Source: Pseudogymnoascus verrucosus
Taxonomy: Eukaryota
Reading direction: 5' to 3' (one strand)
Assembly (NCBI GenBank): GCA_001662655.1
Contig: KV460275.1
Length of the DNA stretch: 22,135 bases
The notes beneath the pieces were generated by a model that worked only from the letters and a program-made list of their open reading frames with translations, was not told the origin of the DNA and did no database searches. This document shows positions 875 to 22,135 of this stretch, piece after piece. The translations under genes and the position numbers were made by a program. Positions within the stretch are counted from its first letter, which is position 1, and every line of letters begins with the position of its first letter.

Positions 875-1173
875 TGTAAGGACATAGGGCACCGTATTAT
901 GAGAAGTTGTATATGGGAGTGCAAGTTAGATAGAAGTCGGTGCAATCCTATAGGTCTACTATAAAGGATATAAAAAAGATGAAGGTGTAACCCTGTATGG
1001 CTGTTCCCTTAAAATACCCGAAACTGCTCTAACTCAGCTAGCTCCCTGTTTGCCTAAGGCTTCCTTACGTTATGTGCCTAAGGCTGTTAGTCGCAACTGA
1101 CCCGTAACGGCCCCGAGTCTCGATGGCGCCACGTAACGGCCGTAACTACCCTAAGTAAGGAGGCATCCTTACA
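875..1173 (-). repeat. 3' LTR of younger family-A element
   Basis: tgtaagga...tccttaca (TG..CA, 8-bp terminal inverted repeat). Same length as and colinear with 8372-8670 and 14946-15244. Confidence 0.97.
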
Positions 1174-1187
1174 CTACCCCCTACCTT
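1174..1187 (-). other. Polypurine tract (plus-strand primer)
   Basis: The - strand reads aaggtagggggtag immediately before the 3' LTR. Confidence 0.8.
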
Positions 1188-1741
1188 AAGAAGGTGCTTT
1201 GTCCTCAAAGCACGCAAGCCGAGTAGCTGCCGCGACGAGCCCTTAGTCGGGTTAGTAGGTGAGGTGCGGGCGCTAAGACTAGAATGCCCTTTGTTTGTCT
1301 AGAAGGCTGATGGTAGGCGGCCGTATAGGCACTAGAAGTGGTCTGAATCCGTTTGCGCAAAGTTGCATCTTTGTTGTGTGCGTGGCGATTAGTAGGCGAG
1401 GGTCCGTATTAGTATCGAATAGAGTCCGCGCGGTATGTGTGTCGTCGTAGAATTTCAATGTAAAGGGGAAATTCAGCGCTAACCCAATTTAGACGGCTTT
1501 GTTATAAGCTAGAATATGAATTCGAGCTTCGCCTACAACTTGTTGTTTTCTTCACAACAACGACGCTAACCCCCCCTCCTAAGACTAGTAAGTGGCCCTT
1601 CCAATGGTACAGCTAGATGCTAATAGGTTGTTTTTAGATACAAAAACACAACTAACGATTTAGTAGGTGACGGAACCGCGCTGGCGCGGTGGTGATAACT
1701 TAGGTTGGGCTGACGGGAAATCGTAGATTTCTAATTTAAAG

Positions 1742-2488
1742 ATGCTAGTTCCCCCTCCTCCCGGCGCCCTCACTGTGGCTTTCTGCCAGTAGTGTATGCG
1801 CTGCGTGCGCGCTAAAGGGTGCAAGAAGGACGGAGATCCCGCCGTCTCGTGTGTGTAGAGCTTAGAAAGCTCTAAGTGTGAGCGCTACGTGGCCTAACAC
1901 GCAACGTGTGTTCTAGTAGGTTCTCGTTTAGCTTTCGGTTTTGTGGTTTGTCTGTCTGCCCGTCGCTGACCTCTAGAGATAGATCTCCTAGTTTACTAGC
2001 CTAGAGTACTAGAAGCTCCTAGCTGCTAAGGCAGCAACCCCTCCCGTCCCTGCTGCCATTAAGGCCGCTACGGCGGAGATTAGGCGTGTGGTTACATTAG
2101 CTACTGCTAATATGCTAAAGTTCCGCTCCCCAGCCGAGCTTTCAGCCTATATGGAGAGTTGCGCCCTCTACGCTACCGTCGAGGACGGTCTAGAGGTAAG
2201 TTTTCCATTTCCCTTGTGTGTTTTTAGTTCTCGCGCTAACGACCGTAGCGGGTCCGCTAGGCCGTGGCCGTCGTGGGCTAGAAATCGGCCCTAATCCTAG
2301 TGAACTAGGAGAAGGAGATCGCTGCCCTTGATGGGGTGGCTTCTGCGGTGGATGCGGTGGGGGAGTTAGTAGAGAGGATCCCCGACGCCCTCGCCGCGGC
2401 GGCGAAGGTAGGCGGTGGTAGGGGGAAGAAGAGGAAGAGGGGGGCGGAGGAGGTGGAGGAGGAGGGGGTGGCCGTCGACCTTAGGTGA
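1742..2488 (+). pseudogene. Antisense, spliced accessory gene (exons 1742-1915, 1983-2195, 2249-2488; ~208 aa) encoding a Zn(II)2Cys6-like Cys-cluster protein with NLS-like motif
   Basis: ATG at 1742. Introns GTAGGT..GCTGAC..TAG (1916-1982) and GTAAGT..GCTAAC..TAG (2196-2248), both phase 0. Joined frame ends at TGA 2486-2488. The 8 internal stops are all TAG/TAA, as RIP produces. Exon 1 reads CMRC-x15-C-x8-CER(C>Y)-x6-C. The C-terminus reads GKKRKRGAEEVEEEG. Confidence 0.78.
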
Positions 2489-2534
2489 TAGGCCCTGTGT
2501 CAGAGGGAACTCAGGCGTGGTCTTTTGCGTGGGG

Positions 2535-5500
2535 TCACTTCAACCCTTCGTCTCTCATGGTAGTAGCCGCTTGTTACGACGCTAGTGAGACGTTTAGGAA
2601 GGGTGGCTTCTGCAAGGGCTACGGCTCTAAGGGTGCCCTAGCTTAGAGGGTGTTTAGTTTAGTGTCGTAGGTAGCAACGACGCTGTTTTCCTCTGCTTTG
2701 CCGTGCCTCTCGTGATCGTAGCTTAGTTTGCCTATCTCCCATTCCGTGATCTAGCTAGGTAGGTCCTACGGCAGTCCTAGTAGGTTTAGGTACTCCGCGT
2801 AGAACTCCCGGATTTTGTAGGGGGAGTTCTTAAAGTTTGAGGCGGGGTACCATTCTAGGTCCGGATCGTATCCGACCTAGGATACCTAGTATTAAAGTTG
2901 TTTTCGCCGGATCCTTACGGCGAGGATCTTTTCGACCTCCTACTCCTCTAGGCCGTCTACGACTTTGCTACTTAGCTTAGGCGCTACTTAACTAGGCAGC
3001 GGGTTATTCGGAGCCTTAATGAGTACGTCTAGAGAGAAGACACTGTGTATTTAGGAACCCTTCGGTAGGTCTAGTCGGAAGGCGTGTCCAATTTGTTCTA
3101 GTACCGTATAGGGTCCGACCCATTGTTGCCCTAGCTTACGGCTAGGGCGGTGATTTTTCAGATTCTTAGTTGATAGGTAAACCTTGTCTCCTACGTCCTA
3201 GTCAATGGCTCGTTAGTATCGATTCGCGTATTTAGACATATCCTCTTGTGCTTTAGCCATGTTCTCCTTTGCGTAAATCTATGCGGAGTGCATGCGGTTT
3301 GCTACTACTTTAGCTTCCTTCTAGTTCATGATTTCCCTAGGGGTCGTGGCTTTTGGGGTTTCCTAGTCCTAACTAGTGCGCGGATTAGTTCCGTACTTAA
3401 GTCGGTAGGGGGTCATTCCGATCGAGGCATGGGGAAGGGTCATTTGCACCCGATCCATGATGGGAATGAGCTCGCTCTAGTTATCCTAGTAATGTGATAC
3501 GAAGGGCCTTAGTCTCTAATCGATATACCGATTCATGATTTCCGTCTACCCGTCGGTCTGCTTGTAATAGGCTGTTGACAGCTTAATCTTAACCCTTATA
3601 ATTCGGTAGAACTCTCGCTAGAAAGCTGATATGAATTAGGGTCCGCAATTACTAATGATCGACTCTAGGGTGTGTCCGAATCGATATATCCATTCGATGA
3701 ATAGCTGCGCCATTTAGTGGGCATCGGTAGTCTTATGACACGGTATGGACACCGAACCCTTACTAAGTCGGTCCATGAACATAAGGATGCTGTCGAATCC
3801 GTGTTTATCCTTTAGGAATTCCTTAAAGTCCATCGTTAGGTGTTGCATGGGGTATTCTAGTACCGGTAGGGGGTATAAGAAGCCTTGCTGCTTCGTGACG
3901 TTAGTGTAAGTGAGTCGGCACGTCACGTAGTTACGTACGTATCGGAGACAATCCGCTTCCATTCCGACCTAATGATACTTTAGGGCGAGTAACTGATAAG
4001 TTTTTCTGCCACTAGGGTGGGCTACTAATACTTAATCGTGTGCTTCCCGTATGAGTTTCGTACATAACTTAGTGTGCTGGGTTACGTACAGTCGACCCTT
4101 ATATAACAATAGTTGGTCCTTCATTATAAACCCATTAGGTAGGGGGTCTTTCGTGCGAGTGTCGGTAAACGACCTCCTATTATCCGCGCAGAGCGCTTCT
4201 ATTAGGTCAAAGGGGACCTAGGTGTTTAGGGCGTCCATTGCATTGATTGAGGCCACGTACGTTTGTGCTAATTCGGCACTGATTTAGGGGTGTAGTTGGG
4301 CTAGGCCTAAAAGCACCCTCGCATAGCTGTCTAGTTTGACCTTCTGCTGTGTAATTAGGTCTTGCTCTCTTCGGCTTAGTATATCTGCCTTCTGATTGTT
4401 CTTGCTAGCTATATATGTAATATAGAAGTTGAAGTTAGAGAGTAGCTCTATCTACCGAACCTGCTTCGCCATAAGAACCTTCGTCGTCATGAAGTATTCT
4501 AGCGATCAGTAATCGGTGTAAACGTCGATTTAGTGGCGTACCGATGTCAATTCTAGCCTCCATTTTGCGAACGCTTTTACGATGGCGAACAGTTCCTTGT
4601 CGTAGATCTCCTAATTGATCTCGTGCCTAGATAGGACGTGACTGTAGAAGCTTACGGGATACCATTGCTTATCTAGGTGTTCCTAAGAAAGAACACTAGC
4701 TACGACTCCGTTAGAGGAGTCTGTTTCCAGCTTTGTAGGCAATTCGGGGTTGAAGTGGTAGAGCGCCTACACGGCTAAAAGCTGTCGGCACATTTCTTTA
4801 AAAGCGTTCTTACATTCGTCAGTCCATAGAAACGGTTCTGAGGGGCTGGTGATAGTAGTAAGAGGCTTGGCTATTTTCCCGAAATTTCTGATAAATTGGC
4901 AGTAGAAGCCGTAGAATCTAAGGTAAGACTTCACGCCTATGACAGTTGTTGGCCGGATCCAATTCCGGAGGGGTTCGATCTTCTCGGGATCCGCTTCGAC
5001 ACCGGTAGTAGTTAGGATATAGCCTAAATACTTTGTCTAGGTTACGTTAAACTTGCATTTCTTAATGTCGGCTTGTAGTCCTGCTTCTTAAAGCCGTTAT
5101 AGGACCTTATGTACGTGGTCCATGTGTTCTGCAGGGTCCTTAGAGTAGATTAGGATGTCGTCTAGGTAGGCAGTACAGAAGTCGTCTAAGTATTGCATAA
5201 GAACGTCGTTCATATACCTCTAATAGGTTGTAGGGCCGTTCGTTAGACTAAACGGCAGCACTTTGCATTTGTAGGATCCATATCGAGTTTGGAAGGTTGT
5301 GTACTCTTCGGAGTTGGGGTCCATTCGTATACGATGGAAGGCTTGCCTAATGTCTAGCTTCGTGAAGATTTTTGCTTTCAACACCCGTCCTAGTAGTTCG
5401 TCGATACGTGGGATAGGGTAGGGGTCGTTATGGGTAAGTCCGTTCAACTTCTAGTAGTCGATACAAAATCTTAGTTTGCCATCTGCCTTCTTTACGAACA

Positions 5501-6770
5501 GTATAGGGGAGGCAAACGGGCTATTGCTATTGACTATAAAGCCCTTCTCGAGGTTCTCTAATAGGTATTGCTTAGTTGCCTTAAGCTCTTCGGTGCTTTG
5601 TCGGTATAGTGGCGAAAAGGCATTTAGTAAAGGGGCTTCTAGTTGTATCTTGTAATCGTATATGCAATGTAGGGGAAGCTGATTAGATTCCGACTTTAAG
5701 AAGACATCGGAATAGTTGCAGTGCATATGCGGAAGCTTGTCCTAAATAAGGCGGAGCGTTTCTTCGTCCTCAGCCGCTTCCCTCTCCTAGATGATCTAGT
5801 CGATCTCGTAGATGCTTGTCGTGAAGAACTTAGAGTCGCTTTGCATCATCTCATAGTAGAAAGCGTTTGCGCTAATCTCGCAAATTTAGACTAGCGTGAA
5901 GCTGCGTAATAGGGTCTAGCGTCGGGAGGGAGAGACAACTCTGCTCCTCCCATGGTTCTTTCTTTTATATGCGGATGGTCCGTTTCTTAGAGGTTTCGCC
6001 TCTACTTGTCCTAAGGGTCTGTCTTTATAGGTTTCTACGGGCAAGGCTCGTGTCCTTAGGGTTTTGGGGTGTGGGTAGGTCGTTCCCTCGTCTTACACCG
6101 AGCTCGGTAGGGTGATCATAATAGCGTCACGATGGGCCGTTATCACTTTCATTAGTATCGAGCGTCTGCCCTCACGTCGTCTGTCGTCATGGTCGATGGC
6201 ATCGTCCCGCTAGTTCGCATCCGATTAATGGGCGGGGTGACGTATAGACAGTTCACGCGAGTGGTAGGCTAAGGTGATCTCTTTGCTCTAGCTAGGAGTA
6301 GGCGGGTACTCCTTTAGCCATACTAGCCAGCTCTTTGCAGAGTCGAGTAGGATTCAGAAGCAGCTAAAAAGCTTCTTCCTAATTATTACATCTTGCGCTC
6401 TAAGATCTAGGAGCACAAAGGGGCAGTTATAGATTTAGCGTCCTTTGACTGTTAAGTGTAACCGAATATACTCCGACACGTAGCTTTAGATATTTTGCTA
6501 AAATCCACGTATGGGTATAGAGTAGGGCAGTTTCTATATAGGGCTCTAGAGCGCTTTTAACAACCGTTACGCGAAAGGCTTATTAATGACGAGGTAGCCA
6601 TTTGCTCCTATGTCTACGAGTGACTTCGTTTGCACCCTGAGTCCGTTCATACTTAGGGTTGTATCAACGAGAAATTAGGAGCCTCCTAAGAGCTCTCGTA
6701 AATCTAGTCCTTACAGATTACATTTGCATAGACCTAGGAAGGAGCCTTTCCCTAGGCCTCGTCGTTTTCC
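2535..6770 (-). pseudogene. pol: pol polyprotein (aspartic protease, RT, RNase H, integrase, chromodomain) with RIP stops; 3' end uncertain (TAA 2643 or TGA 2535)
   Basis: One frame throughout: LVD(T>I)GANGY (6606-6614), [40 protein letters not shown] (5157-5168), LETDSS, EIYDKELFAIV, HLTMDF..MDRLSK, WVGPY, and chromodomain EVEKIL..GYDPDLEWYPASNF (~2800-2945). ORF-track hits 3714-3962, 5220-5447 and 5451-5726 are fragments of it. Confidence 0.96.
6731..6770 (-). promoter_or_regulatory. Putative -1 ribosomal frameshift signal (gag/pol)
   Basis: G GAA AAC (6764-6770), 5-nt spacer, then 10-bp stem ggcctaggga/ttcctaggtc (6749-6758/6731-6740). pol is in the -1 frame relative to gag. Confidence 0.65.
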
Positions 6771-7960
6771 TCTAGGGACGCATCCGACTAGTAGGCGACT
6801 GCTTCCTCCCACTGCTCTTCGTCCTTAGGGGCTTTGCGATCAATCTCCTTAACGGTGGGGTTAAGCGGGCATTTGTCTTGGAAATGGCCCGGCTTGCTGC
6901 ACTTGAAACAGTTCCTAGACGTAGCTGGCACAGCGGTCTGCACGCGGCCTATAATGTCCAGCTTAGGGGCCGTAGGCGTAAAGGGAGTCCTCTAGAAGGA
7001 AACTAGAGGGTTTCTTGTCTGCCTTAGTAGCTAGGCCTTTCTAGGGTCCACGGGCGTGAACCTAGATGAGCTTAGGCGGGCGGGTCCTTAGGAGCTCGAC
7101 TCGCTGCTCTTAGACGGGAAGCTTAACTCGTTGTTCTAGCGCTGCTCCTAATCGAAGGCGGTGAGTTCTTAGACCATGGTGTAGTAGTCTCCCTTCCATT
7201 GACTTTTGATAACTGCTACGTGGCTACGGAATTAAGGGGTCAACTTGTTCTATATGTACCAAAACCATTCCAACTTAGTAACCTGTCCTATAATAGCTAC
7301 ACTTTAGAAGCGAGCTTTAAACTCTAAGAAAGTCTCGTTTGTATGTCCTTTCTCTCCCATTTAGAGGTCGTCAAAGAGGTTCTAGGCCTGTTCCGTTTCG
7401 TTGCTAGTGAGGTAATATGAACCTAACAGGTCCATCATCTCGTCGGCACTCCGAAACCCGTGGGTCGCAGATAGGTATTAGGGTTTGAGGTATTTCTTTG
7501 CTAGGCTAGTCGTAGTCCCCTATATCAACGCTCTTCTCGAGACGTCGGTAGGGTAGTGATCCTCATTAACTACGAGGCGGTCCTAAATGGACGCGCTCCA
7601 TTACATAAAGGTATGTTCTATCCCATCGCTAAGCGGCGTAATCTTCTTAGAGATGGTGGATTTCTTATAGCAATTCGGAGGGTCTTTGGAATACATCCTT
7701 AGAATCGATGGAGAACGAGTGTTTTAAAGAGGCAGCAACTGAACTGTCTTAGGGGTGTTTCGCATAGGGGAAGTTCGTTGCTCTGCAACTTCGACGGTGT
7801 CTACTAGTAGCGTGGACGGAATTCTAGTCTAGGTTGCCGCTAGGTTAGCTATCATTTCCTTAATCTCTTGCATCTAGATCTCGAGGTTTGCCATTCGATC
7901 TAGTATGTCATCGGTAGGTGTAGCAGTCGTAGCTATAGCAGTAGTTTATCTCGTTGACAT
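6752..7960 (-). pseudogene. gag: gag (~402 aa) with RIP stops
   Basis: ATG at 7960 is in frame with zinc knuckle CFKCSKPGHFQDKC (~6870-6910) and with stop TAG 6752-6754 after ENDEA. In-frame ATGs at 8005 and 8014 are alternative starts. Confidence 0.88.
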
Positions 7961-8356
7961 TCGTGACGGTTAACCATCATTGTCTTAGGGGATGTTTAAG
8001 GTCATTTTCCTCATATTAGTTCGGGGGTGTATTAGTGTCGATACGAAAGAGTTTGACTTCTAGTAGCTCGTAGCTATCAACACTCTTGTTTACAATTGCC
8101 TCTATGCTTAAGGGGGTTCTTAAGGATCTCGTATCCTATTTGGCGCTAACGCGTCAGCGACTTTACTAGCTTGCTCTATAGGATCAAACCCTGATCTACT
8201 AGTTGTCTGTGAGTTCTATAGGGTCACGGCTATTTGAAGTCGTTAGGTCTCTACTTCGAAATGTCACTAAGTCGCGGTCGGTAGTGTTTCGACAGTTCTC
8301 CTAAGTCGTTCTAGTTGTGGGATATTATTTACGTACGGCCGTCCCTAGTAGGTGTG

Positions 8357-8369
8357 ATCTTTTTTGTAT
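8357..8369 (-). other. Self-priming primer-binding site
   Basis: atcttttttgtat (8357-8369), 2 nt from the LTR edge, is the exact reverse complement of atacaaaaaagat (8465-8477) inside the 5' LTR. Confidence 0.85.
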
Positions 8370-8371
8370 AA

Positions 8372-8670
8372 TGTAAGGACATAGGGCACTGTATCATAAG
8401 AAGTTGCATATGGGAGTGCAAGTCAGATAGAAGTCGGTGCAATCCTATAGGTCTACTACGAAGGATACAAAAAAGATGAAGGTGTAACCCTATATGGCTG
8501 TTCCCTTAAAATACCCGAAACCGCTCCGACTTAGCTAGCTCCCTGTTTGCCTAAGGCTTCCTTACGTTATGTGCCTAAGGCTGTTAGTTGCAACTGACCT
8601 GTAACGGCCCCGAGTCTCAATGGCGCCACGTAACGGCCGTAACTACCCTGAGTAAGGAGGCATCCTTATA
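8372..8670 (-). repeat. 5' LTR of younger family-A element
   Basis: 299 bp. About 18 differences from 875-1173 by manual count, all transitions. Terminal CA changed to TA. Confidence 0.97.
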
Positions 8671-9062
8671 GCTAATATGCTAAAGTTCTGCTCCTTAGCT
8701 AAGCTTTTAGCCTATATAGAGAGTTGCGCCCTCTACACTACTATTAAGGACAGTCTAGAGGTAAGTTTTCTGTTACCCTTATATGTTTTTAGTTCTTAGG
8801 CTAACAACTATAGTAGGTTTATAAGGCTGTGGCCCTTATAGGCTAGAAGTTGGCCCTAATCCTAGTAAACTAGGAGAAGGAGATCGCTGCCCTTAATAGG
8901 GTAGCTTCTATAGTAGATGTAGTAGGGGAGTTAGTAGAGAGGATCCCTAACGCCCTTACTATAGTAGTAAAGGTAGGTAGTAGTAGGGGGAAGAAGAGGA
9001 AGAGGGGGGTAGAGGAGGTAGTAGAGGTAGAGGAGGAGGGGGTAACTGTTGACCTTAGGTAA
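8671..9062 (+). pseudogene. 3' half of the antisense accessory gene of the older family-A copy
   Basis: Homologous to 2106-2488. Retains GTAAGT donor (8761), GCTAAC branch point and KKRKR codons. Has an in-frame 9-bp insertion. Stop TGA reads TAA. Confidence 0.7.
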
Positions 9063-9108
9063 TAGGCCCTATGTTAGAGGGAACTTAGGTGTAGTCTTTT
9101 GCATAGGG

Positions 9109-12100
9109 TTACTTTAACCCTTTGTCTCTTATAGTAGTAGCTGCTTATTGTAACGCTAGTAAGACGTTTAGGAAGGGTAGCTTCTATAAGGGCTATAGCT
9201 CTAAGGGTGCCCTAGCTTAGAGGGTGTTTAGTTTAGTGTTATAGGTAGCAATAACGCTGTTTTCCTCTACTTTGCTATGCCTCTTGTAATCGTAGCTTAG
9301 TTTGCCTATCTCCTATTCTATAATCTAGCTAGGTAGGTCCTATAGCAGTCCTAGTAGGTTTAGGTACTCTATATAGAACTCTTAGATTTTATAGGGGGAG
9401 TTCTTAAAGTTTAAGGCAGGGTACCATTCTAGGTCTAGATTATATCTAACCTAGGATACCTAGTATTAAAGTTGTTTTCACTAGGTCCTTATAGCAAGGA
9501 TCTTTTTAACCTCCTACTCCTCTAGGCTATCTACAACTTTGCTACTTAGCTTAGGCGCTGCTTAACTAGGCAGTAGGTTATTTAGAGCTTTAATGAGTAT
9601 GTCTAGAGAGAAGACATTATGTATTTAGGAACCCTTTAGTAAGTCTAGTTAGAAGGCGTGTCTAATTTGTTCTAGTACTATATAGGGTCTAACCTATTAT
9701 TGCCCTAGCTTACAGCTAGGGAGGTGATTTTTTAGATTCTTAGTTAATAGGTAAACCTTGTCTCCTACGTCCTAGTTAATAGCTTGTTAGCGTTAATTTA
9801 TATATTTAGACATATCCTCTTATGCTTTAGCTATGTTCTCCTTTGTGTAAATCTATATAGAGTGCATGTAGTTTGCTACTGCCTTAGCTTCCTTCTAGTT
9901 TATAACTTCCCTAGGGGTTATAGCTTTTAGGGTTTCCTAGTCCTAACTAGTACGTAGATTAGTTCTATACTTAAGTTAGTAGGGGGTTATTCTAATCAAG
10001 GCATAGTAAAGGGTCATTTATACCTAATCTATAATAGGAATAAGCTTGCTCTAGTTATCCTAGTAATATGATACAAAGGGCCTTAGTCTCTAATTAATAT
10101 ACTGATTTATAATTTCTATCTACCTGTTAGTCTGCTTATAATAGGCTATTAACAGCTTAATCTTAACCCCTATAATTCAGTAGAACTCTCGCTAGAAAGC
10201 TAATATGAATTAGGGTCTACAATTACTAATAATCAACTCTAGGGTGTATCTAAATTAATATATCCATTTAATGAATAGCTACGCCATTTAGCAAGCGTTA
10301 GTAGTCTTATAACATAGGATAGACACTAAACCCTTACTAAGTTAGTCTATAAACACTAGGATGCTGTTGAATCTGTGTTTATCCTTTAGGAATTCCTTAA
10401 AGTCCATTATTAGGTGTTATATAGGGTATTCTAGTACTAGTAAGGGGTATAAGAAGCCTTGCTACTTCGTAACGTTAATGTAAGTAAGTTGGCATGTTAC
10501 ATAGTTATGTATGTATTAGAGACAATCTGCTTCTATTCTAACCTAATGATACTTTAGGGCAAGTAACTAATAAGTTTTTCTACTACTAGGGTAGGCTACT
10601 AATACTTAATCGTGTGCTTCCTATATAAGTTTCATATATAACTTAGTGTGCTAGGTTATACACAGTTGACCCTTATATAACAATAGTTAGTCCTTTATTA
10701 TAAACCTATTAGGTAGGGGGTCCTTTATGCAAGTGTTAGTAAACGACCTCCTATTATCTATATAGAGCGCTTCTATTAGGTTAAAGGGGACCTAGGTGTT
10801 TAGGGCGTCTATTGCATTAATTAAGGCCATGTACGTTTGTGCTAATTTAGCACTAATTTAAGGGTGTAGTTAGGCTAGGCCTAACAGCACCCTTACATAG
10901 CTGTTAAGTTTAACCTTCTATTGTGTAATTAGGTCTTGCTCTCTTTAGCTTAGTATATCTGCCTTCTAATTGTTCTTGCTAGTAGTATATGTAATAGAGA
11001 AATTAAAGTTAGAGAGTAGCTCTATCTACTAAACCTACTTTGCTATAAGAACCTTCATTGTTATAAAGTATTCTAGTAATTAGTAATTAGTGTAAACGTT
11101 GATTTAGTAGCATACCAATGTTAATTCTAGCCTCTATTTTACAAACGCTTTTATAATAGCAAACAGTTCCTTATTATAAATCTCCTAATTAATCTTATGC
11201 CTAGATAGGACGTAACTATAGAAGCTTATAGGATACCATTGCTTATCTAGGTGTTCCTAAGAAAGAACACTAGCTACAACTCTGTTAGAGGAGTCTGTTT
11301 CTAGCTTTGTAGGCAATTTAGGGTTGAAGTAGTAGAGCGCCTACATAGCTAAAAGCTATTAGTGCATTTCTTTAAAAGCGTTCTTACATTCGTTAGTCTA
11401 TAGAAACAGTTCTAAGGGGCTAGTAATAGTAGTAAGAGGCTTAGCTATTTTCCTAAAATTTCTAATAAATTAGCAGTAGAAGCTGTAGAATCTAAGGTAA
11501 GACTTTACGCCTATGATAGTTGTTAGCTAGATCTAATTCTAGAGGGGTTTAATCTTCTTAGGATCTACTTTAACACTAGTAGTAGTTAGGATATAGCCTA
11601 AATACTTTGTCTAGGTTACGTTAAACTTACATTTCTTAATGTTAGCTTATAGTCCTACTTCTTAAAGCTGTTAAAGGACCTTATATATATAGTCTATATG
11701 TTCTATAGGGTCCTTAGAGTAGATTAGGATGTTGTCTAGGTAGGTAGTATAGAAGTTGTCTAAGTATTACATAAGAACGTTGTTTATATACCTCTAATAG
11801 GTTATAGGGCTGTTTGTTAAGCTAAACGGCAGCACTTTACATTTATAAGATCTATATTAAGTTTAGAAGGTTGTGTACTCTTTAGAGTTAGGGTCTATTT
11901 ATATACAATGGAAGGCTTGCCTAATGTCTAGCTTTATAAAGATTTTTGCCTTTACTACCTGTCCTAGTAGTTTGTTAATACATAGGATAGGGTAGGGGTT
12001 GTTATAGGTAAGTCTGTTTAACTTCTAGTAGTTAATACAAAATCTTAGTTTACTATCTGCCTTCTTTACAAACAGTATAGGGGAGGCAAACAGGCTATTG

Positions 12101-13344
12101 CTATTAACTATAAAGCCTTTCTTAAGGTTCTCTAATAGGTATTGTTTAGTTGCCTTAAGCTCTTTAGTGCTTTATTAGTATAGTGGTGAAAAAGCATTTA
12201 GTAAAGGGGCTTCTAGCTATATCCTATAATTGTATATATAATGTAAGGGAAGCTAATTAGATTCTAACTTTAAGAAGACATTAGAATAGTTACAGTGCAT
12301 ATACAGAAGCTTGTCCTAAATGAGGTAGAGCGTTTCTTTATCCTTAGCTGCTTCCCTCTCTTAGATAATCTAGTTAATCTTATAGATGCTTGTTATAAAG
12401 AACTTAGAGTCGCTTTACATTATCTTATAGTAGAAAGCGTTTGCGCTAATCTTGTAAATTTAGACTAGTGTAAAGCTATGTACTAGGGTCTAGCGTTAGG
12501 AAAGAGAGAAGACTCTACCCCTCCTATAATTCTTTCTCTTATATGTAGATAGTCTGTTTCTTAGAGGTTTTGCCTCTACTTGCCCTAAGGGTCTGTCTTT
12601 ATAGGTTTCTATAGGTAAGGCTTATGTCCTTAGGGTTTTAGGGTGTAGGTGGGTTGTTCCCTTGTCTTGCACTAAGCTTAGTAAGGTAATTATAATAGCG
12701 TTATAATAGGCTATTATCACTTTCATTAGTATTGAGCGTCTACCCTTACGTTGTCTATTGTTATAGTTAATGGCATTGTCCTACTAGTTTGCATCTAATT
12801 AATAGGCAGGGTGACGTATAGACAGTTCACGCAAGTAGTAGGGCAAGGTAATCTCTTTACTCTAGCTAGGAGTAGGCAGGTACTCCTTTAGCCATACTAG
12901 CCAGCTCTTTATAGAGTTAAGTAGGATTTAGAAGTAGCTAAAAAGCTTCTTCCTAATTATTACATCTTACGCTCTAAGATCTAGGAGCATAAAGGGGTAG
13001 TTATATATTTAGCGTCCTTTAACTATTAAGTGTAACTAAATATACTCTAATACGTAGCTTTAGATATTTTGCTAAAATCCACATATAAGTACAGAGTAGG
13101 GCAGTTTCTATATAGGGCTTTAAAGCGCTTTCAACAGCTATTACATAAAAGGCTTATTAATAACAAGGTAGCCATTTGCTCCTATGTTAGTAAGTGACTT
13201 CGTTTACACCCTAAGTCCATTTATACTTAGGGTTGTATCAATGAGAAATTAGAAGCCTCCTAAGAGTTCTTATAAATCTAGTCCTTATAGATTACATTTG
13301 CATAGACCTAGGAAGGAGCCTTTCCCTAGGCCTTGTCGTTTTCC
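9109..13344 (-). pseudogene. pol: pol of older family-A copy
   Basis: Same length as and colinear with 2535-6770. Many more stops. Confidence 0.93.
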
Positions 13345-14534
13345 TCTAGGGACGTATCTAACTAGTAGGCAACTACTTCCTCCTACTACTCCTTGTCCTT
13401 AGGGGCTTTGCAATCAATCTCCTTAACAGTAGGGTTAAGTAGGCATTTGTCCTAGAAATGGCCTAGCTTGCTATACTTAAAACAGTTCCTAGACGTAGCT
13501 AGCACAGTAGTCTGTACGCAGCCTATAATGTCTAGCTTAGGGGCTATAGGCATAAAGGGAGTCCTCTAGAAGGAAACTAGAGGGCTTCTTATCTGCCTTA
13601 GTAGCTAGGCCTTTCTAGGGTCTATAGGCGTAAACCTAGATAAGCTTAGGCAGGTAGGTCCTTAGGAGCTTAACTTGCTACTCTTAGACAGGAAGCTTAA
13701 CTCGTTATTCTAGCGCCACTCCTAATTAAAGGCAGTAAGTTCTTAGACTATAGTGTAGTAGTCTCCCTTCTATTAGCTTTTAATAACTGCTATGCAGCTA
13801 TAGAATTAAGGGGTTAACTTGTTCTATATATACTAAAACCATTCTAACTTAGTAACCTGTCCTATAATAGCTGCACTTTAGAAGCGAGCTTTAAACTCTA
13901 AGAAAGTCTTGTTTATATGTCCTTTCTCTCCTATTTAGAGGTTGTTAAAGAGGTTCTAGGCCTGTTCCGTTTCGTTGCTAGTAAGGTAATATAAACCTAA
14001 TAGGTCCATTATCTCGTTAGCACTCTAAAACCTATGTGTTGTAGATAGGTATTAGGGTTTAAGGTACTTCTTTACTAAGCTAGTTGTAGTTCCCTATATT
14101 AACACTCTCCTTAAGACGTTAGTAGGGTAGTAATCCTCATTAACTATAAGGTAGTCCTAAATAGACGCACTCTATTACATAAAGGTATGTTCTATCCTAT
14201 TGCTAAGTGGCGTAATCTTCTTAGAGATAGTGGATTTCTTATAGCGATTTAGAGGGTCCTTAGAATACCTCCTTAGAATCGATAGAGAATAAGTGTTTTA
14301 AAGAGGCAGTAACTAAACTGTCTTAAGGGTATTTTGTATAAGGGAAGTTCATTGCTCCTCAACTTCAACAGTGTCTACTAGTAGCGTAGACAGTATTCTA
14401 GTCTAGGTTGCTACTAGGTTAGCTATCATTTCCTTAATCTCTTGTATCTAGATCTTAAGGTTTGCTATTTAATCTAGTATGTTATTAGTAGGTGTAGTAG
14501 TTGTAGCTATAGTAGTAGTTTATCTTCTTAACAT
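13326..14534 (-). pseudogene. gag: gag of older family-A copy
   Basis: Colinear with 6752-7960 (1209 nt). ATG retained at 14534. Confidence 0.86.
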
Positions 14535-14945
14535 TTGTAACAGTTAACTATCATTGTCTTAGGGGATGTTTAAGGTCATTTTCCTTATATTAGTTTAGGG
14601 GTGTATTAGTGTTAATACAAAAGAGTTTAACTTCTAGTAGCTTATAGCTATTAACACTCTTGTTTACAATTGCCTCTATACTTAAGGGGGTTCTTAAGGA
14701 TCTCGTATCCTATTTAGTGCTAACGCATTAGCGACTTTACTAGCTTGCTCTATAGGATTAAACCCTAATCTACTAGCTATCTATAAGTTCTCTAAGGTTA
14801 TAGCTATTTAAAGTTGTTAGGTCTTTACTTTAAAATGTCACTAAGTTGCAGTTAGTAGTGTTTTAACAGTTCTCCTAAGTTGTTCTAGTTATAGGATATT
14901 ATTTAAGTACAGCTGTCCCTAGTAGGCGTAATCTTTTTTATATAA

Positions 14946-15244
14946 TGTAAGGACATAGGGCACTATATTACAAGAAGTTGCATATAGGAGTGTAAGTTAG
15001 ATATAAGTTAGTACTATCCTATAGGTCTACTATAAAGGATATAAAAAAGATAAAGGTGTAACCCTATATAGCTGTTCCCTTAAAATACCTAAAACTGCTC
15101 TAACTTAGCTAGCTCCCTATTTGCCTAAGGCTTCCTTACATTATGTGTCTAAGGCTATTAGTTGCAACTGACCTACAATAGCCCTAAGTCTTAATGGCGC
15201 TATATAACAGCTGTAACTACCCTAAGTAAGGAGGCATCCTTACA
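14946..15244 (-). repeat. 5' LTR of older family-A copy
   Basis: 299 bp, tgtaagga...tccttaca. Adjacent PBS atcttttttatat (14931-14943) is complementary to 15039-15051. Confidence 0.96.
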
Positions 15245-15623
15245 TTATCCTAATAAGGAGGTCTATAAAGACTACTAAGAAAGCCTATTATAAGTATTAG
15301 AGTAACTAGAGCTAGAGGATAACTATAAAGGTCTATAGCCTATAGAAATCTAGGCTATAAATAGCTACTACTTTAATAGGGCTACTACTAATAAGGAAGG
15401 GGACAAACTATAGACATAAGACATATCTAAGATTAATTACCCCTAGTATAAATTTATACTATAGTTATAGTGTTATACTTAGGACTACTTATAGCACTAC
15501 CTTAAGAAGATAGACTATGCTTACTTCCTTACTAGATAAAGACTAGTCTACTATAACTAGGAGGTAATAAAGGGGATCCTTATAAAGTAATAATCTACTA
15601 GATAATTAAAGTTAAAAAACTAG
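15245..15623 (+). pseudogene. gag: 3' end of family-B gag
   Basis: Frame ends tta aaa aac tag (15612-15623) with slippery heptamer A AAA AAC (15614-15620). The protease frame is -1 to it. Confidence 0.62.
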
Positions 15624-17038
15624 GAGTCCTTAATAGTAGGCTACTAATAAGTAATAATAAGAGGCTTAGTAAGGAATAGCTATATACTATAGAGGGTAGT
15701 ATATAGCTATATATAGTTACTAAGATATAATAGTAACACCTCTAAGTAATAATTAACTTAGGAGTAATAGGCAACTTTATAATAAAGAAAGTAGTAGACT
15801 CTTAAGGTTTTAAGACATAATTAAAAACTAAACCTTACCTACTAATAGTTATAGATAGAGAACCTATCTTAACTAATAAGGGAATAGTAACCTATAAGAT
15901 AGTCCTATTAGAAATAGTTATACTATATAGATATAAGGAAATAATCTAATTTAACATTATATATATAGATAATTATATATATATCCTTAGTATACTATAG
16001 CTTAAGAAATATAATCCCTAGATTAACTAGTAGAATAAGAAAGTTATAATAAGCTAGTATATATATAAATAACAAACAGACATGCTATAATAGGAGAAAC
16101 CCTCCTAAGGCTAATATAAGGTGTAAATAACCTCTATAGAGCCTAGTAACCTAGCCTAGGCACCCTTACTAATAAATATACTAGTAGAGTATAAGGAATA
16201 TAAGTAGCTATTCTAGGAAGGCCCTAAGAATAAGGCACTTCCTAAGTACTAACTATAGGATTATATAATACCTTTAAAAGAAGGAAAGAGTCTACTATTT
16301 AGACTAATATACTAGATGTTAGTAGATAAGTTAAAACTGTTAAAGGAATATATTAATAATAACCTTAAGAAAGGATTTATTAGACTATCTAAATCTCTTA
16401 TAAGAAGCCTAATGTTATAAGTTCCTAAGAAGGATAGAAGTAAACAACTATATATAGACTATTAAGCATTAAATAATATAATAATAAAGGATTAATACAC
16501 CTTACTATTAATTAATAAGTTATATAATAGATTCTAAGGAGCTAAGATCTTTACTAAGCTAGATCTATATAGTATATATAACCTAATCTAGATAGCTAAT
16601 AGTAAGGAGTAGAAAATAGCATTCTATACCTACTATAGCCTATTTAAATATTAAGTTATACCCTTTAGGCTAACTAATGCCTATACATCTATATAATGCT
16701 TAATAAATAACACTTTATATAAATACCTAGATATATTTACTATTATTTACCTAGATGATATACTAGTATACTTAGTAAATAAGGACAAACATATATAGTA
16801 TGTTAAGCTTATCCTAAGAAAGCTAAAGGAATACAACCTACTATTAAAGCTAGAGAAGTATAAGTTCTATAAAAGCTAAGTTAAATTCTTAGGTTACATT
16901 ATTAGAACGTATAGTATTAAAATAGACTAAGTAAAGGTTATAGTAGTATTAGAATAGCTAATACTAACTATAGTTAAGGAAGTATAAGCTTTTTTAGACT
17001 TTACTAACTTTTACTATTAGTTTATTATAGGATATTCT

Positions 17039-17527
17039 TATTATAGTAGGTTTCTATAACCCCTATACTAACACATTAATTAATGGGGTAATCTAGGTTA
17101 TAGTGTTTTAAATGTAGATTATAAGGATATAGGTTTGCTTAAGAACGCTCCTAGGAGAAGTCTTCTAAGAGAGCTCTCCTAAAAGTAATAGGCTCCTAGA
17201 AGAGTTCTTCTAGAAGAGTTAGTCTCCTAGAAGAACTCTCCTAGAAGAGGAACTCTTATAGAAGAGAATTCACATAATTAGATATATTAGATATATAGAT
17301 ATATTATTATATCCATTAATATCCCTATATCTATTAGGTATAATGCTACTATATAAGTAAATAGTTAGTTCTTAGATAGGAGCTTTATGCTTAACTTAAC
17401 ATAGTATTTATTATATACTATAACATGTTTTATAAAAGCCTTTATGTCTAATCCTATACCTCCTCTATTAAGTAAACTAATGTAATGAAACCTCTATAAG
17501 TCTTATAGTTTAGGACCTAGCGTTATA
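17039..17527. mobile_element. Solo LTR of a third family (489 bp)
   Basis: Flanked by perfect 5-bp TSD attct (17034-17038, 17528-17532). Ends tattata../..cgttata fit RIP of TG..CA. Removing it restores pol ..GYS|KVA..L.ELTRKD. Confidence 0.88.
17141..17267. repeat. Degenerate tandem array (~8 copies of ctcctagaagag-like unit) in the solo LTR
   Basis: Repeated ctcctagaaga/cttctagaaga units at roughly 14-20 bp spacing. Confidence 0.8.
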
Positions 17528-19272
17528 ATTCTAAGGTAGCCTAACTACTTATAGAGCTTACTAGGAAGGATCTTATATTTAAATAGATAGATAAAGTAGA
17601 GGCTACCTTCTAGGAACTTAAGACAAAGTTTATAGAGGCACCTATCCTTACTACATTTAACCCTATAAAGAAGATTATCCTTAAGATAGACTCTTCTAAC
17701 TTTATAATTAGAGTATATCTAAATTAGCTATATAAGAATAGTAAGTTTAAACTAATTATATACTACTCTAAGAAACTATTACCTATAGAGCTTAACTATA
17801 ACATCTATAATAAGGAGCTACTAGCTATTATTATTACCTTTAAGTAATAGTAAGTATATCTTAAGGAATCTACCTATACTATATAAGTATAAATAGATTA
17901 TATAAACCTTATATACTTTACTATAACTAAGGTTCTAAACTATAGATAAGTCTACTAGATAGAAACCCTTATAGCCTATAACTTTATAATAACCTATTAT
18001 AAAGGCTCTAAGAACATAAGAGTAGATGCCCTTAGTAGATAGACTAACTACATTAGCCTAAAGGTAGAAAGACCTAGAGTAATATTAAAGAAAACAGATA
18101 TAAGAATATAGTATAATAAGTTACTAGATACTACTACTTCCTAGGTATAAGGAAGTAAGTAGAAATAGTAGTAAGAGAGTATAATATTTATAGTAAGGTG
18201 AAATCTAATAGGCACTTACCTTATAGACAGCTTAAGTTAACACTAGTACTAAAAGGAGTATAGAAATTAATAGCATTAGACTTTATTATTAAGCTACTAC
18301 CCTCTAAAGACCTATTAATAGAAGTAGAATATAACTCTATCCTTATTATTATAGAAAGACTTATAAAATATAGGAAATTTATACTATATCTAGAAGCTAG
18401 TAATGCTAAGGCACTTATATATACCTTTATTTAAGTTATATTAGCTAATTATAAGATGCTAGAAGAAATTATCTTAGATAGAGACAAGCTCTTTACTTTA
18501 AAATTCTAGAAATCATTAATGGCTCTATTAGGAATAAATCATAAGCTATTAATAGCTTTTTATCCTTAGATAGATAGCTAAATAGAAAGATTAAATTAAA
18601 CCCTTAAATAGTACCTATAAAGTTATGTTAATTATTAGTAGGATAACTAGGTTTAGATTTTACCTATTATATAGTTTATATATAACAGTGTAATAATAGA
18701 AGTAATAAAAGTCTTACTATTCTTTACTAATTATAGCTACTAGCTAGAAGTATATAGGTAACTAAGACTAGATAAAGCATAAGCTAAACAAGCCCTAATT
18801 ATAGTAGAATAACTAAAATCGTTCTATAAACAACTTATAATAGACATCTAATTCTTAAATGAATAATCTACTATATATATAAATAAGAAGTATAGTATAG
18901 AACCTACCTTTAAGGAGAGGGATAAAGTATACCTACTCTAGAAATACATTAAAACAAAATGACTAAGTATAAAGTTAGACTTTAAGAAATTAGGACTATT
19001 TAAAATATTAGATAAGGTTAGCTTAGTTAATTATAGGCTATAGCTACTTAAGAACTCTAAACTCTACCTAGTGTTTTATATCTTGTTATTAGAACTAGTA
19101 AGAGGGAATACCCTAATTATAACTAATACTAAACTCTAGCTTAAGAATAAAATTATTAAATATAAGGTTAAAGTAATCCTAGATAGAAGGTTAGTAGGAT
19201 GCTAAGAGGAGTTTTTAATAAAATAGAAAGGTTATAAACCTATAGATAACTTATAAGAAATAGTAGGAAACC

Positions 19273-19866
19273 TTAGTTACCTAGAGTTACTAGTAGGGTT
19301 CTACTATTAATACCCTAGTAATTAAAGAACCTAGGGGATAAGGCTAATAAGTAGTTATATTTAGAGATAATACTCCTAGAGTTAGTTATAAAAGGGCTAG
19401 TAAGGTAAGTATAGGCTTTAGCTTTATACTACTTACATTCCTCTACTTCCTCTAGCTTATCTAAGGTCTTTAGGCTATAATAAAGTATCTTAGTACCTTA
19501 GGTCTTAAGAAGATCCTACTACTACTTAAGGTAGTTAAGATAGGCTATAGCTATAGCTATAGCTTTATAAGTTATATAAGTTTTAAGATAAAGATAGTCC
19601 TCTTCTTTCTATAGTAACTACTAGTTACTAGTAGAGGGACTAGAGACGTTATAGTTATAGGAATTTAAATGAATACATTTATTACATTATTTAGAAGAAG
19701 TAGAGGTAAGGTAGTAAAGACCTTATTTCTTATAGTAGGAATAAGAAGGAATTTTAACCCCTTTATAGGTTATTTAGTTAGTAAGAAGTTTATACTCTTT
19801 AATTTTAGTATGTTTAAATAAAGATATAGTTATAGCCTAACCTACTCTATAGATAGTAGTAGGCAT
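19273..19866 (-). pseudogene. Antisense accessory ORF of family B (~197 aa): Zn(II)2Cys6-like cluster plus predicted coiled coil
   Basis: ATG at 19866. In-frame codons TAT-x2-TAT-x6-TAC-x8-TGT-x2-TGT-x7-TAT (19743-19651) revert by TA->TG to C-x2-C-x6-C-x8-C-x2-C-x7-C. Downstream literal KEED..LKTLDKLEEVEE. The stop position is inferred. Confidence 0.68.
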
Positions 19867-19926
19867 TACCCTACTTAAGTAGTTAGTACATTTCTTAGTT
19901 AGTAAGACCTAGGGGCTAGGCCTTTT

Positions 19927-19935
19927 AGGGAGGGA
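19927..19935 (+). other. Polypurine tract of family B
   Basis: agggaggga 5 nt before the tgttata LTR start. Confidence 0.7.
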
Positions 19936-19940
19936 CCTAG

Positions 19941-20290
19941 TGTTATAGCTAGCATTTATAGCTATACTTTTACTAACATACTAGTTATAGTAGTAATGAA
20001 TATATTAGTAATTTAGCTACCCTTAAGGTAGGGTTAACATTAAGTAATAGAGTTTTCTTAGGCACCTACTTCTATAGGTACTAGAGAATTCCTAGGCACT
20101 TAAGGAATACTAGGTACTAGATAGAGTAGGTACTAGACTCTTTCTAAGTACCTAACTATTATAGGGTACTAGATAGAGTAGGTACTAGACTATTTATAAG
20201 CACTTCCTTATAAGATCCCTATATAATAGAATAGTAGGAATAGTAAGAATAGTAATAGAGTTTACTATTCTAACTATTCCCTTTAGTATA
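19941..20290 (+). repeat. 3' LTR of family B (right end cut by the DNA transposon)
   Basis: Starts TG after the PPT. Contains a perfect 27-bp direct repeat (20113-20139, 20165-20191) and TATA-like tatttataag (20191). No second copy in the window. Confidence 0.72.
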
Positions 20291-20337
20291 ACGTGGGTAG
20301 ACATGACCCTATGCACAATAGGACCCTATGCACTTTT
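20291..20337. repeat. Left terminal inverted repeat with internal direct repeat
   Basis: gaccctatgcac occurs twice (20305-20316, 20322-20333). Confidence 0.88.
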
Positions 20338-20390
20338 CCTTAGCATTAAACTTTGAATATTAATAAATTAACTACAACACATTAAATTAA

Positions 20391-22052
20391 CTATAACTTA
20401 AAGGAATTAGATGAACTAGATATATCTACAGCTTCTTAATAAGTTTGTACGTTATAACTAGCTTTTCTATAGATCCCACAGCGCTGCCTAGACTGTTGCC
20501 CCTCCCTACAACTACCCCCTACTATACGTACGTTGCGTTGTATCTGCTCATCTACGTCCTCCTATGTAATAATATCCTATGCATCCTCTACTATAAGTGC
20601 ACCCCCTTTATAGACACAAGCCTTTTTAGCCCTATAGCGTTTGCTAAGGGCTTCATTAGCTGCTTAAAGGGTATGCACCTTAGTAGATAGAAGGGTGTTC
20701 TTATGGGCTAGTTGCTCTATACCCTTTGCTAGCGTAACAACTGTCTTAAAAAGTAGAGTTAGCAAGCTCCCTTAGTGACAGGCAATCCGATTTCAAACAA
20801 GTGTTGTTTATGAAAGAGCCTTAGTTAGGTTAGAAGGGGTCTAGGAGACCTAAGGGGTGGTGTTGGCAGTAGAGGGTCTAGAGGGAGTTAGAGTTCATAA
20901 CTTTACGTCAAGCTTTAAAAGCACTGCTTACAGGTTAAAAGGCACTAAGCTAGCTCTATAGAATCTAGCCTAATAGTTTTAGGCTGTTATTAACTCCTTA
21001 TATGCTGCTATAAAGGCTAGAAAGAACTCTACCTTTGTGATATAGTTAATATAGGCTTTAATAAACGTCTTAATCTACTAACTATACATCTGCTTTAATA
21101 CACTAAAGCACCTAACATTAAGTGGCTAGGTTAAATGAGACGAGTAAGAAGGTAGTCTAAGAGTTATAATGTTATGTAACTTATAGTACTCTTAGAACTT
21201 AGCTGATTTATAACTCTTATGCCCATCTAAGACTAGTATTTAATATAGACCCCTTATATAAGTAGCAGTGTGTTTATTAAAGTGTTTTAGCCATTCTAGA
21301 CCTATCTTATTATTTATCTATCTATTACTTGTCAGTTTAATAACCTAGTTAGGTGGGAGGCTACTGTCTATATACTAATTTAAAAGGTGGTTCTTGCCCT
21401 AAACTACTAGAAATGGAGGAACACTCTAGCCTTTACTATTAATACAAGTAATTACTATAGCCTATTCCTAATTCCCTAGCTAAACTACCTTGCCTCTACT
21501 ACGTTGATCTATATAGGTTACAACCATTATAGGGCAAATCACACCTATTATAAAGCTAGTTTCGTTAAAGTTATAGAAGTTGTAGTCTAAAACCCTATAT
21601 TTTGCCCTTATATTTTCTACTAGTTAAAACTATGCGCTAATTAGCTTAGGATCTTTGCATAAGGCCCTTTAGAAATTATAAACGTAATTAAAACGCGTCT
21701 TAAGGGCTAGTTGTCGTTATATAAACCGCTATGCCTAGTAGCCTCTAACACGCGTCCCCCTACGCGATTTAAGAATAAAATTAGCCATATCTTCTACACT
21801 AGCTAGCTAGGGTGCAAACCCTCTAGAATCTAGCTTAAGTATATTCTAAACAATCACTTCCTCCTCTAACTTAGACAATTTAATATTTGCTAGCTGTTGC
21901 TTAGGGAGGGGAAGGTGGCTGTTCATTCTAAGCCTAAGTAACGATTTAGGAACTTTATAGAGCTTTGTAGCAGCTTAACGGCTTAGCTTTCTAGACGTTT
22001 AAATAGCCTTAATAGCTAGAATGATTTTTACTTCTTTAGTAATAACTAACAT
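20391..22052 (-). pseudogene. Fot1/pogo-family DDE transposase (~553 aa) with RIP stops
   Basis: Start, middle and end share one frame: N-terminal HTH (ILAI.AI..S.KLS..AA.KLYKVP), YNF(D>N)ET(G>S)F, LVLDGH, SSHLT.PL(D>N)V.CF, and a C-terminal RCGI(C)..(H)N..T(C) knuckle. Confidence 0.93.
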
Positions 22053-22103
22053 AGTAGAAGGTAGATAAAACGCGTTCTAAAGTAAGAGGGTAGGGAATTT
22101 GCA

Positions 22104-22135
22104 AAAAGTACATAGGGTCCTATTGTGCATAGGGT
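22104..22135. repeat. Right terminal inverted repeat (partial)
   Basis: Reverse complement of 20306-20337 with one G->A mismatch. Confidence 0.9.

Follow-up and report, generated by a model that had tools for sequence, protein, structure and literature searches.

The minus strand of the 22,135-nucleotide stretch of Pseudogymnoascus verrucosus DNA analysed here (contig KV460275.1 of assembly GCA_001662655.1; the whole stretch, at its full length, is called the window in the following) carries, from 19827 down to 19273, what is almost certainly a pseudogene of the brtn family, i.e. of the antisense genes of Boty-like retrotransposons in Leotiomycete fungi. It is very probably the dead remnant, altered by repeat-induced point mutation (RIP), of a brtn-type gene belonging to a Boty-like Ty3/gypsy chromovirus (element B), and for intact members of this kind a mechanism of action as an element-borne DNA-binding regulator is proposed below. 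The window copy itself is inert, and the gene does nothing. The kind of gene is already known as brtn and is not new, since the family includes the BRTN protein of Botrytis cinerea, product of the antisense gene of Boty-like elements reported in 2011; the window holds a dead member in another lineage. Judged from sequence comparison, the frame was once a real gene, and it is accepted as such because of its homology to a protein family and not because of the spacing of its cysteine codons alone.

The preliminary description of this DNA had drawn attention to a minus-strand frame opening with an ATG at 19866 and ending at 19273, in which Tyr and Cys codons fall at the spacing of a Zn(II)2Cys6 cluster, two of them still TGT and four TAT or TAC. 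The frame exists, with 13 internal stops besides the terminal one, but the ancestral start lies 39 nt downstream of that ATG, at 19827, where an ATG is found both in the intact relative L004 described below and in a contig of sequencing run X2. With this start codon lost and 12 stops within the gene so delimited (table 1), the window copy is not an open, translatable frame. The Cys/Tyr pattern was found exactly as described and is the sole match in all six frames of the window, two cysteines remaining and four having become Tyr through G>A changes in TGY codons; the six frames hold no all-Cys version of the pattern, and a six-frame Pfam scan of the whole window gave no Zn_clus match at E ≤ 0.01.

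When the frame, with its stops masked as X, was compared by phmmer with 1.84 billion representative sequences, 27 proteins were retrieved at E ≤ 1e-3, most of them of 140-220 aa and with most of the frame covered. One protein, P0012 (1290 aa, with EGF and Dictyostelium repeats), is a spurious Cys-rich match and was excluded from all alignments, and P0013, which has a frame-shifted middle, was left out of the profile that was searched against the window. This profile of the relatives gave a single match in the six-frame translation of the window, at 19294-19818 on the minus strand (E 1.9e-35, 110.8 bits, profile positions 4-176 of 182), and the family search gathered 122 proteins at E ≤ 1e-5. 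Those with a named source belong to Pseudogymnoascus, Botrytis, Sclerotinia, Monilinia, Stromatinia, Hymenoscyphus and Calycina, with a single Dothideomycete (Aulographum) besides; several members or their cluster mates carry the database name 'Zn(2)-C6 fungal-type domain-containing protein', and in the ESM Atlas the clusters closest to the family consist of unnamed Ascomycota 'hypothetical proteins' that share no Pfam family.

Intact members begin with M-S-S-S-K-H-T-K-I-K-E-R, continue with the six-cysteine cluster, with D-V-x-G-P-S-x-x-D-W and with a long helix containing E-M-L-R-R-G-L-K-T-L-D-E-L-D, and end in F-W...G-G-T-P-x-A-x-x-G-S, the conserved C-terminal motif being F-W...G-G-x-P. 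In an alignment of 13 intact members (A2; mean column identity 39%) M25, the six cysteines, W67 and L70 are invariant; among 99 members one cysteine never varies, and each of the remaining five is conserved in at least 90%. The protein sequence that the preliminary description had obtained by reverting the presumed mutations comes close to that of these intact members and of the L004 protein. M25, which directly precedes the first cysteine in 13/13 intact members, is encoded by a codon now mutated in the window, and position 19750 is C and not A (i.e. ATG on the minus strand) in nearly all other copies from four sequencing runs; this Met could be an internal start, giving a form that starts after the N-terminal basic helix, or merely a structural residue. 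As to how such genes appear among public proteins, P0001, P0003, P0004 and P0006 are RIP-mutated gene fragments with Tyr at Cys positions, annotated as 'hypothetical protein', and P0002, P0026 and P0018 are entries that begin at the Met equivalent to M25.

The decay of the gene can be read against L004, one of eight loci (L001-L008) found by scanning metagenome contigs with a single protein (P0022) as the query. The antisense open reading frame (ORF) is open in six of the eight, with premature stops in L007 and L008. L004, which as the less-mutated comparator is a close relative and not a copy from the same genome, has pol DNA 66-75% identical to window 15610-19291 (blastn), an integrase-chromodomain part with 62.7% protein identity to window 18120-19316 (tblastn), and an intact antisense ORF of 188 aa. 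The codon alignment of this ORF with the window (555 columns, 58.7% identity) is collinear from start to stop, codon for codon, and no intron is needed, as had been supposed. The L004 start ATG and stop stand opposite the ATA and the TAA of the window, all 12 internal stops of the window face Arg, Gln, Trp or Leu codons, and the six cysteine codons of the cluster are all TGT or TGC in L004. The preliminary description had taken the four Tyr codons to be the product of RIP, a claim against which Tyr, His or Arg at these places in less-mutated copies would have spoken; L004 has Cys at all six. The two sequences differ at 229 places, 175 of which show C>T or G>A in going from L004 to the window, as compared with 25 transitions in the opposite direction and 29 transversions; by the direction of these changes, the mutations that killed the window copy are RIP-type transitions.

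Element B is present in multiple copies in four organisms, as seen when contigs of four sequencing runs were aligned to 18800-20300. Relative to the window, A>G and T>C make up most of the differences found in these other copies (110 and 108 in run X1, versus 37 G>A and 15 C>T), and in run X2 one contig has an unmutated end, the minus strand of which encodes M-S-S-S-K-H-T-K at the ancestral start.

Within the element, the antisense gene sits between pol and the 3' long terminal repeat (LTR), its end overlapping that of pol and its start codon standing 114 bp from the LTR. It is so placed because of the polypurine tract, of the TGTTA at 19941, of the arrangement of L004, the homology of which extends across the LTR joint (19891-19945), and of the other-copy contigs of the four runs, which start or stop matching at 19941-19945 and diverge past 20293; the distance from the ancestral ATG to the polypurine tract and the LTR start, both upstream of it, is thus 100-114 bp. 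The gene does overlap the chromodomain coding region tail to tail, as noticed earlier, since the pol homology in the window reaches at least 19316, inside the antisense gene. In all four long loci (L001, L002, L004 and L006) pol terminates in SH3_Tf2-1 and Chromo domains, and an intact antisense ORF overlaps its end by 113-125 bp. The layout is shared by seven of the eight loci, L003, L005 and L007 also having an opposite-strand pol end downstream, and the L008 contig stops 40 bp past the match, hence an eighth locus with no visible pol end; relatives had been expected to lie antisense, directly 3' of a chromodomain integrase, and this is what the seven show. About 440 of the approximately 560 nt of the antisense ORF are outside pol. 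We infer that the promoter of the gene is held in the 3' LTR.

The assignment to brtn follows from P0064, the 'putative BRTN' of B. cinerea (ACN56558.1), which matches the family profile at E 6.9e-49 and the window frame at E 3e-11 (BLASTP), with 28% identity to the frame in its mutated state. The two genes are homologous, have the same strand and place (antisense, between pol and the 3' LTR) and reside in the same type of element, namely Ty3/gypsy with a chromodomain integrase and short LTRs. They differ in that the window copy has no start codon, has 12 internal stops and has Tyr in place of four of the six cysteines; in addition, it sits in another lineage, its nearest named relatives being Pseudogymnoascus proteins, and the last loop of its cluster has 7 residues as compared with 6 in most members of the family. 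In the accessible portions of earlier reports, brtn is an additional antisense ORF of BcGypsy1/Boty, credited to Zhao et al. 2011 (PMC8365987); Boty of B. cinerea and S. sclerotiorum is described with an antisense ORF of unknown function between pol and the 3' LTR (PMC7264820), a Boty-like element with 'brtn-106' and 5-bp target duplications (PMC4227169), and a Monilinia transcript as resembling truncated Pol and BRTN (PMC5987419). The open literature, as far as its accessible text goes, yielded no link between brtn and a Zn2Cys6 cluster, the paper of Zhao et al. 2011 (Virology 417:248) lying outside that search and PMC5987419 having both words in separate contexts. The plant Ty3/gypsy elements Grande1, RIRE2, Retand and PvRetro13 also carry an antisense ORF, likened to the present one by position and orientation alone and not described as encoding a zinc-cluster protein in the available part of a survey, and the function of the antisense ORFs between pol and the 3' LTR is stated to be unknown for all elements listed there (PMC7264820).

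What an intact brtn-type protein would do depends on its six-cysteine module, and the chances that it is a zinc-cluster DNA-binding dimer appear to us about even; the Gal4-like reading is plausible but unproven. Zn2Cys6 domains hold two zinc ions and recognise DNA as dimers, typically at CGG half-sites. Under the rule C-x2-C-x6-C-x5-12-C-x2-C-x6-8-C, 13/13 intact members fit the Zn2Cys6 spacing exactly, and the likeness to the domains of Gal4, Put3, Ppr1, Hap1, Leu3 and Pho7 (PF00172) lies in the spacing C-x2-C-x6-C-x8-C-x2-C-x6/7-C and in the short linker and ensuing long helix predicted for the brtn-type protein. Indeed, the AlphaFold2 (AF2) model of P0011 (mean predicted local distance difference test score, pLDDT, 83) shows a pair of short helices in the cluster region (residues 21-60, pLDDT 87-93) followed by one helix at 64-134 (pLDDT 96-98). 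Foldseek against 350,542 PDB chains placed Zn2Cys6 proteins in all 19 of the best rows listed, with nothing else before rank 26 (Pho7, Gal4, Put3, Hap1, Leu3, Ppr1, CBF3, AlcR and 1cld are among those in the list), and the VIA overlay on 1cld, presumably LAC9, covers 33/33 residues with a root-mean-square deviation of 2.2 Å and 30% identity. PF00172 is the sole recurring Pfam family in the 99 members, each other family matching one of them. Unlike known Zn2Cys6 proteins, brtn-type proteins are of 140-220 aa and lack the fungal transcription-factor middle homology region, are encoded by a retrotransposon and not at a host locus, and have a conserved N-terminal basic helix and the C-terminal F-W...G-G-x-P motif. 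The idea of a minimal Gal4-like protein, put forward in the preliminary description, thus survives as regards the six-cysteine spacing and, weakly, the size, fused forms of greater length (381-2000 aa) not having been found at E ≤ 1e-5 among 8000 candidates, but the protein does possess a C-terminal portion. Similarly, the helix expected after the cluster is there in the model, but its coiled-coil heptad signal is modest.

In the mechanism proposed, an intact brtn-type gene would be transcribed inward from the 3' LTR to give a small nuclear protein, the N-terminal six-cysteine module of which would fold like a Zn2Cys6 binuclear cluster, and the 70-residue helix of which would pair two chains as in Gal4-type DNA-binding domains; the element would carry in this way a regulator of its own, which would most likely bind its own LTR DNA. 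That the element's own LTR is the target is nevertheless a distinctly doubtful proposition. Short palindromic GG-N2-CC arrays are found in the LTR U3 of L004 (1-150), the window (~20060-20205), L001 (~1990-2050) and L006 (~4340-4400), the palindrome depending on the lineage: GGYACC in the L004 and window LTRs, GGATCC-like runs, as judged by eye, in L001 and L006. By pattern count, the U3 of L004 has nine GGYACC at 16-18 bp spacing versus one in the remaining 4.2 kb of the locus; Tandem Repeats Finder made no call of the LTR motif arrays. The number of array units varies, since 34-108 bp of this stretch are missing from other copies in the runs. The arrays are possible candidate sites at which the protein of the element itself, or host factors, might bind. 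CACGTG also occurs in LTRs (L001 ~2070, L002 ~1-10, L003 ~1500, L006 ~4390 and a run X1 contig at the LTR joint), and may be a host-factor site. Taken as a whole, the proposal that brtn-type proteins are self-encoded Gal4-like dimeric regulators, which read the GG-N2-CC arrays of their own U3 and balance sense and antisense transcription, is speculative and, in our estimate, unlikely to hold in full.

Several results weigh against the reading of the frame as a dead brtn-type gene or against that of its product as a zinc-cluster protein. Of 1000 dinucleotide-preserving shuffles of 15250-20200, 21.6% already contain the Cys/Tyr spacing at least once, a high rate due to the Tyr-richness of translated RIPed DNA (9.4% of all residues are Tyr when the RIPed region is translated in six frames), and Pfam on the X-masked window frame gives no match at E ≤ 10. 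Both would suit a chance pattern in Tyr-rich RIPed LTR or untranslated DNA where no gene ever existed; this is virtually impossible, being ruled out by the profile match (E 1.9e-35 over 175 residues), by the codon collinearity with L004 and by the 27 database matches. None of the 40 listed of 446 read-copy differences falls on the four Tyr codons, so that these copies speak neither directly for nor against Cys there. As to the protein, PF00172 (39 positions, curated cut-off 21 bits) scores above its cut-off in one of 21 scanned proteins and at E < 0.01 in nine of them, reaches E ≤ 0.01 in 20/99 members (best 2.1e-4), and gives E 0.07 with BRTN P0064 and E 0.6 with the L004 protein; its matches span about half of the profile, the first half-cluster being aligned to the second half of the profile. 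The Foldseek matches are weak (best E 0.058, none ≤ 0.001), the VIA Z scores are only 2.1-2.9, and the fold match is not independent evidence because AF2 was trained on Zn2Cys6 domains. A profile search of PDB sequences returned only coiled-coil noise (Beclin-1 E 0.12, KKT4 E 0.9) and no solved Zn2Cys6 protein. The excess of heptad a/d positions is reached by 151 of 5000 permutations (p ~0.03), and the helix, highly charged with many E, R and K residues, could be stable on its own.

These protein-level points, and the ESM Atlas clusters without a Pfam family, fit a different view, by which the retrotransposon gene brtn is genuine while the Cys6 module it encodes is of another type than that of Gal4, namely a zinc- or disulfide-stabilised module on a long charged helix, which would bind protein or RNA, for example as an adaptor that serves the particle, the integrase or the silencing machinery of the element. 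We consider this somewhat unlikely, in view of the exact Zn2Cys6 spacing in the 13 intact members aligned, of PF00172 as the only family to recur, of the uninterrupted series of Zn2Cys6 DNA-binding domains at the top of the Foldseek ranking and of the Zn(2)-C6 name borne by several members. The antisense unit might also act mainly as RNA, a transcript from the 3' LTR across the pol end giving antisense or double-stranded RNA, by which the element would be tuned or small-RNA production supplied, with the protein secondary. The overlap with the 3' end of pol in the intact loci would serve such a role, and Boty-type LTR elements are known small-RNA sources in B. cinerea according to the accessible part of PMC8365987; however, the high conservation of the protein (six Cys, W67, L70 and E-M-L-R-R-G-L, across the 13 intact members and the 99 sequences), the ORF kept intact in 6/8 metagenome loci and the large share of it outside pol make this very unlikely, and the zinc-cluster regulator is retained as the preferred reading of the intact protein.

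The preliminary description had regarded the gene as the instance, in a second and distinct retrotransposon family, of an antisense Cys6 ORF at the same position, the other family being that of element A, a Ty3/gypsy retrotransposon which fills the first 15 kb of the window. As to position and Cys6 content this stands for element A, but as to homology there is a weak alignment only. Between pol and the 3' LTR of element A, the Pseudogymnoascus hypothetical protein P0151 maps at 85-95% identity to an antisense gene that appears to be spliced. Its spacing, C-x2-C-x15-C-x8-C-x2-C-x6-C, puts the six cysteines in register with those of brtn once 9 extra residues in the first loop are allowed for; hhalign aligns the two clusters weakly over 33 columns (probability 39%, E 3.2e-4). 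Pfam on P0151 found nothing; the brtn profile against element A (1-15250) gave no significant match (best independent E-value 0.58, at 1820-1915), nor did 149 family proteins by tblastn (best E 0.013, on the gag zinc knuckle). Homology of the element A gene and brtn is, at present, only a possibility. Element A itself is a nested pair and not a tandem array, the inner full copy (877-8670, minus strand) lying within 14-15250; its LTR ends are TGTAAGG...CCTTACA, and it was inserted in the antisense-gene region of the outer copy, with a 5-bp duplication at its flanks (TTAGC / TTAGT).

The map of the window (table 1) is based on Pfam on the stop-masked frames and on self-comparison. The window consists of fungal repeat DNA and bears strong RIP signatures; GC content falls to 26% across 15.5-19.5 kb, and a single ORF of at least 100 aa is found in six frames. 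Where the internal part of element B ends, near 19394, was estimated by extrapolation from L004, the pol end of which matches Pfam Chromo at E 2.9e-14. Element B starts abruptly in its protease region (15243-15260), adjoining the 5' LTR of the outer element A copy, and in the window it has neither gag nor a 5' LTR, owing either to an insertion of A into B or to a truncation of B. At the other end, a Fot1/pogo-like DNA transposon severs the 3' LTR of element B; its 32-nt inverted repeats are at 20306-20337 and 22104-22135, the right arm touching the end of the window.

Table 1. Coordinates in the window of the brtn-type pseudogene, of its host element and of the neighbouring elements.
Feature	Position	Strand	Remarks
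RIP-inactivated brtn-type gene	19273..19827	-	start codon 19827-19825 (now ATA), stop TAA 19275-19273, 12 internal stops
Six-cysteine cluster C-x2-C-x6-C-x8-C-x2-C-x7-C	19651..19743	-	codons now TAT, TAT, TAC, TGT, TGT, TAT
Conserved Met codon before cluster	19750..19752	-	ATT in window, ATG in L004
Long-helix region, putative coiled coil, motif E-M-L-R-R-G-L-K-T-L-D-E-L	19408..19632	-	coordinates via L004 codon map
Element B, internal part	15251..19394	+	very probably a 5'-truncated, heavily RIPed Boty-like Ty3/gypsy chromovirus, GC ~26%
Element B reverse transcriptase (RVT_1)	16421-16903	+	Pfam, X-masked frames
Element B RNase H (RT_RNaseH)	17596-17970	+	Pfam, X-masked frames
Element B integrase SH3 (SH3_Tf2-1)	18921-19094	+	Pfam, X-masked frames
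Element B chromodomain	~19163-19310	+	62.7% identity to L004 pol end
Element B polypurine tract	19927-19935	+	read from sequence; aligns with purine run before TGTTA in L004
Element B 3' LTR	19941..20293	+	begins TGTTA; interrupted ~20293 by neighbouring DNA transposon
Element A	14-15250	-	Ty3/gypsy retrotransposon
Inner element A copy	LTR 8670-8369, gag-pol, antisense-gene region 2111-1250, polypurine tract ~1196-1183, LTR 1181-877	-	
Outer element A copy	continues at 875-14 and 8671-15250	-	
P0151 blocks, element A	1742-1912, 1983-2195, 2276-2440	+	partial also 512-878, 8671-9005
Fot1/pogo-like DNA transposon	20294-22135	-	Pfam DDE_1 21033-21461

Being a fossil, the window copy matters little as such, although RIPed fragments of brtn-type genes are, more generally, a source of false small ORFs in gene annotation. 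The brtn family is wider than the two species dealt with in the accessible part of PMC7264820. The combination of a six-cysteine cluster, a long helix and LTR motif arrays makes of the element-borne DNA-binding factor a testable hypothesis. HBZ of human T-cell leukaemia virus type 1 (HTLV-1) is an antisense-encoded basic leucine zipper (bZIP) factor transcribed from the 3' LTR. By analogy, brtn would likewise specify a small, dimerising, DNA-binding-like protein from the minus strand, with the 3' LTR directing its expression, HBZ differing in being a bZIP and not a zinc-cluster protein, in belonging to a different host kingdom and in having no homology to it; if true, the reading of brtn as a self-regulator would provide a fungal counterpart of HBZ. 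Furthermore, since two very different chromovirus lineages in the window keep an antisense Cys6 gene at the same place, such a gene would, if this reading is true, be an old and general accessory gene of Leotiomycete chromoviruses and not an oddity of Boty.

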